A stretch of DNA of 64,000 bases from an uncultured Chthonomonadaceae bacterium (GTDB lineage: Bacteria; Armatimonadota; Chthonomonadetes; Chthonomonadales; Chthonomonadaceae): contig CAWFQB010000001.1 of the NCBI GenBank assembly GCA_963817895.1, forward strand, positions 704,001 to 768,000. Reading direction: 5' to 3'. A program made the translations under genes and the position numbers. The notes under the pieces were generated by a model. It worked only from the letters and a program-made list of their open reading frames with translations, did no database searches and was not told the DNA's origin. Position 1 is the stretch's first letter, and each line of letters begins with the position of its first letter. This document shows, piece after piece, positions 8,522 to 59,823 of the stretch.

Positions 8522-8650
8522 AGTACGGCAACCTGGCGACCATCAGGAGTCTGTTCCATGGCAGTCAGCGCGTATGCGCTATTCTACTTAACATCCTCTA
8601 AGGCCCATGGCTTTGCGTCCCCACATTTCTATGGGTTTGCCTTTGACATC
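8522..8650 (-). ncRNA. Cyclic di-GMP-I (GEMM) riboswitch with an extended P3
   Basis: Minus strand reads AAAGGCAAACCCAUA-GAAA-UGUGGGGACGCAAAGCCAUGGGCCUUA...AUGGUCGCCAGGUUGCCG, matching the c-di-GMP-I consensus; lies in the flgM 5' leader. Confidence 0.9.
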
Positions 8651-17755: not shown

Positions 17756-19572
17756 ATGACCAATTTGGCCGACATTTCTTTGAAAGTTCGCAATTACAAG
17801 TGCTTTGCTTCTGAGGAACAAGGGTATGAGAGAATCCTGCCTATCAATTTGATCATTGGACGCAATAACACTGGAAAATCAGCTCTGCTGGAGATTGTTG
17901 GTCATGTTATTTCTAACGCCGATCTGCGGCGTTATAGCTTCAAAGGACAAGAACCTCAAATTCTATTATCTGCGCCTCTAAGGCAAATCGAAATAAATCA
18001 GGTAATAGACCATGTTCGTCAGGGCAATCTTGATGTGAATAATGAACATCAGTTCTTAACGGATATTCGTACTTCTCGCATCCAGTGGACATGCCGACTC
18101 CAAGATGCCATAAACGTTGTTTTTCAACCTTCCCTTAGCCATTACTTCAGATCACAGGAACAACATAGTAATCATCTGAATTTTTTTGTAAATCCAATTA
18201 AAAGACCTTTCGGAGGCTTAAAGTTCCGACGCCTCTCTCCTGATAGAGACATCAAGCCAGAAGTAGATGCAGACATCAATTACGATGCTGAAGTACCCGA
18301 CAAGTACCTGAATGCAAATGGCACTATGGCAACAACACTATTTCAGCAATTCCTTAATCGAGAGGACCTTCCACGTGAACTTGTGGAAAAAACGATTCTT
18401 GATAACTTGAATCTTATATTTTCTCCTGATGGTTATTTTACTCGGATTTTTGTACGTCAAATCGTCGTTACTTCTGACCACCGTAACAAGCAATGGGAGA
18501 TCGATTTAGAGGAAAAAGATAAGGGCAGTGTTCGTGTAACTGATTCCGGACACGGGTTGAAAACTATTTTATTAGTTTTAGCGAACCTCTTTCTGGTCCC
18601 AAGATTTTTAGGGCATCCACTTCATGAATTCATTTTTGGCTTCGAAGAATTAGAAAACAACATGCACCCAGCACTTTATCGCAGATTGCTGATGTATTTG
18701 CGAGACAAAGTTAAAGAAGAAGGTTGTCACATCATCCTAACTAGCCACTCGCACGTTGCCATTGACCTTTCCGTCCGAGAAAAGGATATAGCACAAATTC
18801 TACATGTCACTCACAATGGTGAGTATGCTGAGGTGCAAACGGTTACAGACTATATGCATCACCGCAAAATTCTGGATGAACTTGATGTACGTGCCAGTGA
18901 CCTACTTCAGTCAAACTGTGTAGTTTGGGTAGAAGGTCCCTCAGATAGATTGTACTTCAACCGATGGATGGAACTTTTCAGCGACGACAAGTTGAAGGAG
19001 GGCGTTCATTACCAATGTACCTTCTACGGCGGCAAGTTGCTATCTCAACTAGAGGCGATTGATCCCTGGCATGACACCGATGCTGAAGACGCCACAGATC
19101 TTGTGAACCTCATGAAAATAAATAAACATGCCATCGTGTTGATGGACTCAGATCAAAGGACAGCCGACTCCTTTATAAACACTACCAAGCAGCGAATAGT
19201 CGAGCAAATTACAGAAATGCAAGGTCTTGCCTGGGTAACAGAGGGGCGTGAAGTCGAAAACTACCTTCCCCAGGAGGCACTAGAGAAAATGTTTACTGGG
19301 CATTCACTTCAACCACTGGCGCAGTATGAAGATATAAAGGACTTTCTTGACAATAATGTTAAAGAAAGTCCTAAACGTAGTTCAGAAAAAATCCTGATAA
19401 ATTACCTGTCGGGGTAGGCAAGCGCTTCGAGGAGGACAAAGTAGGTTTTGCTCGCCGTATCTGCCCCCATCTCAATATGAAAAATCTTTCCACTCACTTG
19501 GACATAAAAACCCAGATGGAAGAGGTATGTGACCTGATTCGCAAATGGAACAAGGTAAGAGAAGGTTCATAG
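17756..19572 (+). CDS. OLD-family ATP-dependent nuclease (ABC ATPase + TOPRIM); frameshift near the A-run at ~19388
   Basis: NYKCF, GRNNTGKS, GHGLKT, FEELENNMHP, TSHS, VWVEGPSD, DSD; the C-terminus continues in another frame as KVGFARRICPHL...LIRKWNKVREGS*; visibly AT-richer than its flanks. Confidence 0.85.
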
Positions 19573-19652: not shown

Positions 19653-19743
19653 TTACTTGGGGCTGTAAATATACCTTTCTGAACATCAGGGCAAAACATG
19701 TTTTGCCCTGACAGCAAGCAATAGACTTACAGCCCCGAAGTAA
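19653..19743. repeat. Nested inverted repeat (long hairpin)
   Basis: Outer arms TTACTTGGGGCTGTAA / TTACAGCCCC-G-AAGTAA enclose a perfect 26-bp palindrome TCAGGGCAAAACATGTTTTGCCCTGA (19686-19711). Confidence 0.85.
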
Positions 19744-19825
19744 GCGCCTCATTCCTTTTTTCTCATAGCGCCAACAACTACAATTCAGAAAAATACAGAA
19801 AAATAGCCAGGCAGCGCAAAAAACA

Positions 19826-20082
19826 TGAAACCTGCGACCAATACATCTGTCTACATAAAACAACTGTCTTTTAATCAGCCAGGTGGCGGGATGTGGAGAG
19901 TTTAAAGTTCCTCTCGACAATCTAACCTGGAAGGGAGGTGCAAGATAATGCCTGTATATACGCGTCCGCCTTAATCCTTACGAGGTCACGACGCCTCTAC
20001 ACACAACCTGACACAACGAGACACTGGGCTGGAAGCGCTGTATTGCCATTATTTCGACGCTGTCTCTACATACTCTTTTTCC
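19826..20082 (+). other. Conserved non-coding element with 8-codon micro-ORF, copy 1
   Basis: ECF-like promoter, SD GAAGGGAGG, ORF MPVYTRPP (19948-19974), hairpins; homologous to 59413..59700. Confidence 0.75.
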
Positions 20083-59218: not shown

Positions 59219-59256
59219 ACCGCCTCTCGAAATGCGCAAACGTTTCGAGAGGCGGT
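59219..59256 (+). terminator. Strong hairpin, probable terminator
   Basis: ACCGCCTCTCGAAA...TTTCGAGAGGCGGT. Confidence 0.65.
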
Positions 59257-59412
59257 ATTGCGTTTGCAGGGCGAACACATCTAAAATACTCGACACCTGT
59301 TACATCCTGGCACATTCGCCCCATGCTGCGCCATCGACCTCCTCCTGATTTCCAACGCCAGAAAGAATGCCTGAAAATAGTAGAAAAACATCTGGTAAAA
59401 TAGCAAAAAAAA

Positions 59413-59700
59413 CGAACTCGTGCTGCATCCGCCTCGTCTAACTACGCAATATACATCTACTTAATAGAGTCTGCTAACTAACTAGGCGACGAGACGCTGC
59501 AAATTCGCAATTCCTGACAACTAACAACTAACAACCTAAACTGAAGGGAGGCGCAAGAAGATGCCTGGTCACACCCGTTCGCCGTAACCATACGGAGGTC
59601 ACGACGCCTCCACTGTAAAATTTGACATAACGAGACACTGGGCTGAAAGCGCTGCATTGCCAATATTTCGACGCTGTCTCTACATACTCTTTTCTCTTTT
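59413..59700 (+). other. Conserved non-coding element with 8-codon micro-ORF, copy 2
   Basis: ECF-like promoter, SD GAAGGGAGG, ORF MPGHTRSP (59561-59587), hairpins; homologous to 19826..20082. Confidence 0.75.
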
Positions 59701-59823
59701 TCATTCAAAGGTGTTCGCTCTGGCTGCGTTTGCATGCCTGCTGCAAGCCGCGCCGAAAGTGCAGTATAATGAGACACGGATTTGCAAACGTTTGCAGAGG
59801 AAAGAAGTTTCGGAGGAACCGCT

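Follow-up and report, generated by a model that had tools for sequence, protein, structure and literature searches.

Dispersed repeats of bacterial genomes are usually regarded as neutral passengers, and the selected multicopy small RNAs that we know of number under ten copies. Several described systems lie close to the element presented here. MICs and MITEs are classes mobilised by insertion sequences (IS), as set out in PMC3281130. Short ORFs can arrest the ribosome at their own stop codon, as described in PMC11890864, and stalled ribosomes have been reported to act as 5' roadblocks that stabilise the RNA downstream (PMC3997798). In the account given in PMC12992588, an R-A-P register in the P site arrests ribosomes, RSPP being partly permissive, and the RAPP-type arrest requires an N-terminal region and, in the A site, a codon for Pro or Gly. 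Here, we describe a bacterial cassette family that can be set beside these systems.

Results

The stretch of DNA analysed (hereafter the window) comprises 64,000 nucleotides of the genome of an uncultured Chthonomonadaceae bacterium (G000, 7.48 Mb), which we compared with two genus-mates (G001 and G002). A first-pass annotation had described two look-alike stretches of the window as a duplicated element, and a sequence check found all the features it listed in both copies, including a shared 65-nt block that is 62/65 identical. The resemblance proved to be far beyond chance, but it does not reflect a single duplication: at convergence, nhmmer returned 48 hits in G000, of which 46 are close to full length (E 2e-48 to 3e-32) and two have the 3' block only. 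The two stretches are members of a family of mobile mini-gene cassettes, of which G002 holds 161 matches to the 20-nt core and G001 holds 13 copies found with a covariance model. Among the 68 genomes of the class searched with that model, the cassette was absent from 65 and present only in the three of this genus, to which the blastn matches in 41 genomes were also confined. In a core-pattern search of genome contigs, the named records with the element were, among the matches listed, Chthonomonadaceae; at least 12 core-pattern loci outside the family (80 of 92 stretches listed) were short, chance-like matches, and 22 metagenome matches and one viral match scored on the loop alone and are not full elements, the three best of these, inspected by eye, being without ORF and hairpin. 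As the first-pass annotation had proposed to check, Rfam was consulted and gave nothing above gathering threshold at the cassette; ARAGORN called no tRNA at either window copy, and a literature search turned up no description of the element, though supplementary tables of repeats or ncRNAs may mention it. For the counts given below, family A comprises 155 copies (46 from G000, 103 of the 161 from G002 and 6 from G001) and family B the seven divergent copies, all from G001.

In 121/155 copies, the upstream region holds an ECF-type pair (GAAMY, 17-18 nt, GTCTA). At window copy 1, the putative promoter (-35 and -10) spans 19826..19853 (+) and is preceded by A-tracts; at copy 2, its putative counterpart, with the motif conserved in the family, spans 59414..59441 (+). 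In G000, this motif is also found ahead of an ECF sigma gene and of an anti-sigma-like gene, and the occurrence upstream of the sigma gene, together with that in the 121 copies, supports the ECF-type promoter of the first-pass annotation. Since the loose motif is not clearly above controls genome-wide (117 occurrences versus 61-110 in spacing controls), the support for the promoter lies in its positional conservation in the cassette. Thirteen G000 copies have a different upstream type with an extended -10-like box. In most copies, the GTCTA of the -10 box recurs once or twice 13-20 nt downstream (window 19850 and 19868; 59437, 59456 and 59470), possibly as an operator or as tandem start sites. 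Heptamer repeats of the CTAACAA / CTATCAA type in the leader (window 59510-59540) expand and contract, and such repeats are also common genome-wide outside the cassette, often as inverted pairs. Five G001 copies (L006, L009, L012, L015 and L018) have a longer structured leader, CTG/TTG/GTG starts and 15-codon ORFs, and carry upstream a ACAACATATAGT box, which we take to resemble an NrdR site.

Downstream genes were called with a simple gene caller of our own. A co-oriented gene follows 26/46 G000 copies, against 59% expected (p 0.76), and the other 20 face a convergent gene, with the ORF equally intact. Because the downstream genes are unrelated to each other and show no orientation bias, the unit is best read as a free-standing small transcript, in keeping with the independent transcription unit that had been suggested from the two window copies; a leader of the downstream gene was excluded on the same grounds. 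The upstream neighbours, judged by eye, are in many cases accessory genes, among them small ones of toxin-antitoxin-like type; upstream of window copy 1 lies an ATPase/nuclease-like gene (17756-19417, +) with a weak match to the retron Eco8 effector (E 7.5e-11, below cut-off). Elsewhere in the window, a c-di-GMP-I-GGC riboswitch (8523-8650, -) scores above the Rfam gathering score. The terminator scan called no canonical terminator at either window copy. The T-tract that had been noted after the stem is present, but it begins several bases past it; at copy 1, the conserved ACATA and the C/T-rich tail that follows (20067..20082, +) form the probable 3' end, which is not a canonical terminator.

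The Shine-Dalgarno sequence (SD) lies 9 nt before ATG in both window copies, at 19930..19938 (+), where it is complementary to the 16S 3' end of G000, and at 59543..59551 (+). It is followed by the micro-ORFs MPVYTRPP-stop (19948..19974, +) and MPGHTRSP-stop (59561..59587, +) and, 7 nt past the stop, by hairpin 1 (19982..19997 and 59595..59610, both +). Further copies retain this arrangement: SD, start and open frame are kept in 150/155 family-A copies, the five exceptions being one 5'-truncated copy, two with an ATT start, one with a premature stop and one with a frameshift, and one further copy is counted as intact only through an upstream GTG. The distance from the stop to hairpin 1 could be taken in all 155 and is 7 nt in 152 and 8 nt in three. 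The last residue before the stop is Pro in 153/155 copies, compared with 7.6% of 4865 predicted genes; R-x-P-stop occurs in 146 copies, with x mostly Ser or Pro, and P-P-stop in six more, the two endings together accounting for 152/155 versus 0.8% of predicted genes. Family B ends in L-P-P-stop, without Arg. All four Pro codons are used, and AGA or AGG does not occur in the last eight codons of the 46 G000 ORFs.

Codon changes were counted by parsimony on a tree of 150 copies, five of the 155 having been left out by the anchoring pattern. At the last Pro codon, 27/29 changes are synonymous (21/23 on terminal branches, binomial p 1e-8), at the Arg codon 25/29 (13/16 on terminal branches, p 1e-4), and all eight changes at the stop codon are stop-to-stop; the changes scored as terminal include homoplasy, because the tree was built from a short alignment. 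The micro-ORF is, given this codon-level selection across the family, very probably translated and selected. Its length, on the other hand, is 8, 9, 15 or 16 codons, always in frame, and the N-termini differ wholly between subfamilies (PVH, FHP, LCLL, PTRTP), with some residue preference at positions 2-5. This variation in length and the drift of the N-terminus indicate that the act of translation, not the peptide, would matter; hence, of the micropeptide proposed earlier, the translated reading frame stands, whereas a free peptide is not the likely product. As far as can be read from the sequences, conservation concerns no particular peptide; it concerns the Pro that would occupy the P site, the stop that would then stand in the A site, and how far the hairpin lies from them. 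A pause of the ribosome at the Pro-stop pair is, we believe, probable, with less assurance than translation itself.

The 3' stem-loop spans 20018..20066 (+) in window copy 1, with a near-invariant apical loop at 20034-20048, and 59632..59680 (+) in copy 2, with the loop at 59648-59662. Covariation of hairpin 1 and of the two helices of the 3' stem-loop was assessed on a 37-sequence alignment, in which 89% of stem cells are paired (slid registers 37-54%) and 24 cells are altered on both sides, a number as high being reached in 0/500 shuffles; independent compensatory events are few, since most double changes separate family A from family B. For the whole RNA of the two window copies, the predicted fold is no more stable than that of shuffled sequences (z -0.26 and +0.44), so that the support for the structure is covariation and not energy. 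Hairpin 1 has only 5 bp. In the two-state fold that had been put forward, one hairpin arm would pair with the SD instead; its predicted probability in family A is 0.10-0.19, against 0.58-0.67 for the local hairpin, and in family B, where the hairpin has changed on both sides and the SD is unchanged, it is 0.00. As a conserved feature, this switch was therefore rejected.

The apical loop (AGCGCUGYAUUGCCA) is without variation in the 37-sequence alignment, and the 46 G000 copies, found by an HMM without reference to the loop, show a single deviation across 690 sites; the copy that carries it is the one that has lost promoter and SD. The loop count was restricted to G000, because the G002 copies had been picked by a core match. 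Target duplications, in contrast, differ at 7/100 sites, and the median identity between nearest copies is 89%; with 10 target duplications, eight of them from G002, as a clock, the neutral expectation for the loop is about 24 deviations. The near-invariance of the loop relative to the decay of the target duplications argues for selection on the copies after their insertion. A complement of the loop with at most one mismatch was not found in G000, and a duplex scan of the loop against the region from 16S onward gave candidate matches that are all GC-rich. The loop matches the D-stem/anticodon stretch of the G000 tRNA-Gly(GCC) at 13/15 positions with the anticodon in register, a likeness noticed post hoc that 9/2000 shuffles equal and for which the genome frequency gives an expectation of 0.018. 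The anticodon stem is not kept in the cassette, the whole-domain alignment is not significant (92/500 shuffles), and neither ARAGORN nor Rfam calls a tRNA at the element.

The cassette is mobile. We compared 68 G002 copies with G000; both flanks are adjacent in G000 for 17 of them (51 unpaired), and 16 of these 17 syntenic sites are empty and one is filled. At the filled site, a G001 copy also lies upstream of the same gene, which makes it the sole shared locus among the 11 G001 loci compared; at this locus (G000 C14:377203-378501, with L064 and L003), possibly a founder locus or an insertion hot spot, the gene is preceded by a copy in all three species, belonging to three different subfamilies. 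Clean empty sites delimit an insert of ~430-480 bp with a 19-bp inverted repeat starting CAGGG and direct repeats of 10-11 bp outside. The ISAs1-ended cassette contains no transposase; its 19-mer end is common to 1.25-kb G000 elements that encode an ISAs1 transposase (C4:225500 and C9:136907; NF033564, E 1.6e-120), and beyond these 19 bp the autonomous ISAs1 and the cassette share nothing. A search with the ISAs1 DNA gave no match in G001 and one of only 45 bp in G002. A 134-bp minimal ISAs1 derivative (L084, G000 C9:64631-64764), consisting of both ends and the 3' tail of the transposase, lies 600 bp from a cassette copy, and in G002 a 1.1-kb tandem duplication (L042, C30) holds two cassette copies, with ATT in place of ATG, another promoter and a divergent small gene.

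A pair of terminal inverted repeats (TIRs) occurs in 14/155 or 17/155 copies, depending on the scoring rule, and a 10-11 bp duplication (at least 70% identity) flanks 9/14 pairs, compared with 1/166 in a cross-paired control. Window copy 2 is such a complete ISAs1-ended unit (59257-59732): its left TIR (59267..59285, +) has four mismatches to the IS end, its right TIR (59704..59722, -) matches the left one at 15/19 positions, and the target duplications (59257..59266 and 59723..59732, both +) agree at 8/10. The left duplication is abutted by a 16-pair REP-like hairpin (59219-59256), and REP-like repeats adjoin 12/149 cassette copies. The subfamily to which copy 2 belongs is an ISAs1-type MITE, with TIRs, target duplications and empty sites. 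The family as a whole is not bounded by ISAs1 repeats: an ISAs1 end of any kind accompanies 15/46 G000, 25/103 G002 and 0/13 G001 copies, and any IS end 20/46, 44/103 and 0/13, respectively. A second type of end, carried by other copies, is that of an ISAzo13 element; an IS630 end and an attC site, both considered from the sequence, were dropped. Window copy 1 has no ISAs1 end and shows a weak remnant of a decayed ISAzo13-type end with the shared upstream flank (19712..19783, +; nhmmer E 3.6e-5 with a profile of seven upstream flanks). The simplest account of how copies without IS ends spread is that they once had such ends, which have since eroded. The first-pass annotation had offered a mobile-element end as its alternative, which holds in that the element moves and is in part delimited by IS ends, but these are inverted repeats of ISAs1 that lie beyond the stretch marked there. 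Its other version, a GTAG-headed REP-like unit, does not hold. GTAG REP/REPIN elements carry a GTAG head on a short palindrome and occur as inverted doublets, whereas in the cassette the GTAG that follows hairpin 1 is not constant from copy to copy and the two motifs have the same orientation.

Discussion

Our results describe a cassette that is real, mobile and, judging by its substitution patterns, selected, and for whose function we can offer a proposal. We tentatively put forward, as a possibility somewhat short of probable, that the unit encodes an ECF-driven RNA whose 3' domain is protected by a ribosome paused at the Pro-stop pair and whose loop would be a stoichiometric effector. Under stress, an ECF sigma factor would transcribe an RNA of ~170-250 nt from the cassette, and the strong SD would load a ribosome, for which termination at R-x-P-stop or P-P-stop would be slow. 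Termination is slow at Pro-stop, and position +14 from the P site is approximately where mRNA enters the ribosome; hairpin 1, whose start is at +14 when counted from the first nucleotide of the codon in the P site, would lie roughly at that entry. The paused ribosome would block 5'-to-3' decay, so that the 3' domain accumulates, and the 3' loop would bind one conserved partner stoichiometrically. Because of this stoichiometric binding, each extra copy would add dose and be kept intact while the IS ends erode. G000 has matches above cut-offs to RNase J and EF-P; the RNase J match (C1:247611-249176, -) contains one internal TGA. A pause of the RAPP kind is argued against by the chain of 8-9 residues, the stop codon in the A site and the lack of Arg in family B. 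We also entertain, as a rather doubtful extension, a bacterial counterpart of the SINE RNAs that are induced by stress: an RNA gene that serves the host and whose product binds ribosomes, more than 100 copies of which would hitch-hike between unrelated IS ends and each be kept for dose, the ribosome parking at the Pro-stop pair and the loop, resembling the anticodon arm of tRNA-Gly(GCC), engaging a translation factor or acting as a decoy for a tRNA-targeting enzyme, so that an ECF signal would lead to translation being throttled or protected.

Other explanations have to be weighed against the paused-ribosome proposal. The mini-ORF and hairpin could form an RNA toxin or dormancy device similar to CreT or TnaC, trapping ribosomes and tRNA-Pro so that many copies slow growth under ECF stress, with the 3' domain as a stability or control element. 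The anatomy is that given for CreT in PMC8501985 (strong SD, AUG, mini-ORF, stem-loop downstream), tRNA-Pro is reported to be depleted by TnaC overexpression (PMC11890864), and a stoichiometric trap would fit the high copy number. We nevertheless regard such a toxin as somewhat unlikely, given that fixed rare codons are absent and all four Pro codons are used, that neither an antitoxin nor an antisense promoter is seen, that cas5 has no match in the 81%-complete genome, and that the greater conservation of the 3' loop than of the ORF would be left unexplained. An unlikely reading, in our judgement, is that of a selfish element devoid of host function, whose ORF, hairpin and loop would be needed for its own spread, e.g., as an RNA or DNA site bound by a transposase or recombinase. 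Positions are indeed nearly all species-specific (16/17 empty; only 1/11 G001 loci shares its downstream neighbour with a G000 copy), and since IS ends are found in only 64/149 G000/G002 and 0/13 G001 copies, another route of spread may exist. Still, the constraint persists on terminal branches as well as in those copies that have no ends, the cassette shares with the autonomous ISAs1 its 19-bp end only, and the promoter, upstream of the predicted start, moves with the unit, a point against copying by way of RNA.

That a released Pro/Arg-rich peptide of 8-16 residues is the product, as a signal or as a binder of the ribosome tunnel in trans, with the RNA structure for its control, would agree with the clear coding signature and with the residue preference at positions 2-5, but seems very unlikely for a peptide that lacks an export signal and has wholly different N-termini (PVH, FHP, LCLL, PTRTP) in the subfamilies; moreover, a free peptide needs no fixed spacing from stop to hairpin. 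We consider it quite improbable that the cassette is a portable ECF promoter with an attenuator regulating whichever gene is downstream: its anatomy is like that of a leader peptide and the downstream gene is co-oriented in 26/46 cases, but chance alone would give 59% (p 0.76), the ORF is equally intact in the 20/46 convergent cases, the neighbours are unrelated and the SD switch is not conserved. Finally, a neutral MITE, in which ORF and structure would be frozen accidents of the founder, can draw on the true TIRs and target-site duplications of one subfamily, on the restriction to one genus and on the weak folding energy, and is nonetheless hardly tenable, being already largely refuted by the wobble-only variation in the last codons, the stop-to-stop changes, the compensatory pairs and a loop decay near zero against a measurable decay of the target duplications.

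Between 13 and ~160 copies per genome, ~10% apart, still share the Pro-stop pair, the 7-nt spacing and the 15-nt loop. These natural variants amount to a mutational scan of how a very short peptide and an mRNA hairpin might pause termination. Should the benefit to the host be true, it would show that an RNA gene can be amplified for dosage by IS ends, and that ORF callers and Rfam overlook such genes even at this copy number.

Type I toxin-antitoxin systems consist of a hydrophobic toxin peptide of ~16 residues or more and an antisense RNA; this class was set aside, the cassette ORF being, in most copies, Pro-rich and of 8-9 residues, and no conserved antisense promoter being seen. In its carrier, the cassette resembles a MITE or MIC derived from ISAs1, being non-autonomous and ~430-480 bp long, with 19-bp ISAs1 ends, 10-11 bp duplications and empty sites in a relative. 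Unlike in such elements, its interior is unrelated to the IS and more constrained than the ends, and most copies are without a recognisable ISAs1 end, some having an ISAzo13-type end and the G001 copies neither. With the CreT RNA toxins of CreTA, as described in PMC8501985, it shares a strong SD, a start codon, a mini-ORF, a stop and a stem-loop downstream, but the two consecutive rare Arg or Ile codons of CreT are absent, the constraint being at the amino-acid level (Pro). Furthermore, the copies are dispersed among unrelated genes, 13-161 per genome, outside any type I CRISPR-Cas/creA context (no cas5 match in the 81%-complete genome), and have an additional conserved 3' domain and an ECF-type promoter. 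The R-x-P in P-site register recalls the RAPP class as presented in PMC12992588 (ApdA, ApdP, SecM); in the cassette, however, a stop replaces the A-site Pro (R-x-P then stop in 146/155), family B is without Arg, and both a localisation signal and a conserved downstream regulated gene are lacking. Closer to the stop-codon arrest class of PMC11890864 (TnaC, PepNL, NanCL) is the short ORF that ends with Pro as its last residue at the presumed pause; an arrest at the cassette stop codon may occur, as the Pro-stop constraint suggests. Unlike in that class, a conserved downstream gene is absent. The sibling sRNAs LhrC of Listeria (PMC4132741) are, as proposed for the cassette, multicopy small RNAs under stress control, from which the latter differs in its much higher copy number, its mobile copies, its selected ORF and the lack of a base-pairing target among those searched for. 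The cargo, which would work like CreT or a stop-codon arrest leader, lacks defining features of CreT, departs from the described stop-codon arrest leaders and falls within no Rfam family, and it is borne by a carrier, the ISAs1-type MITE/MIC, that belongs to an already-known class.
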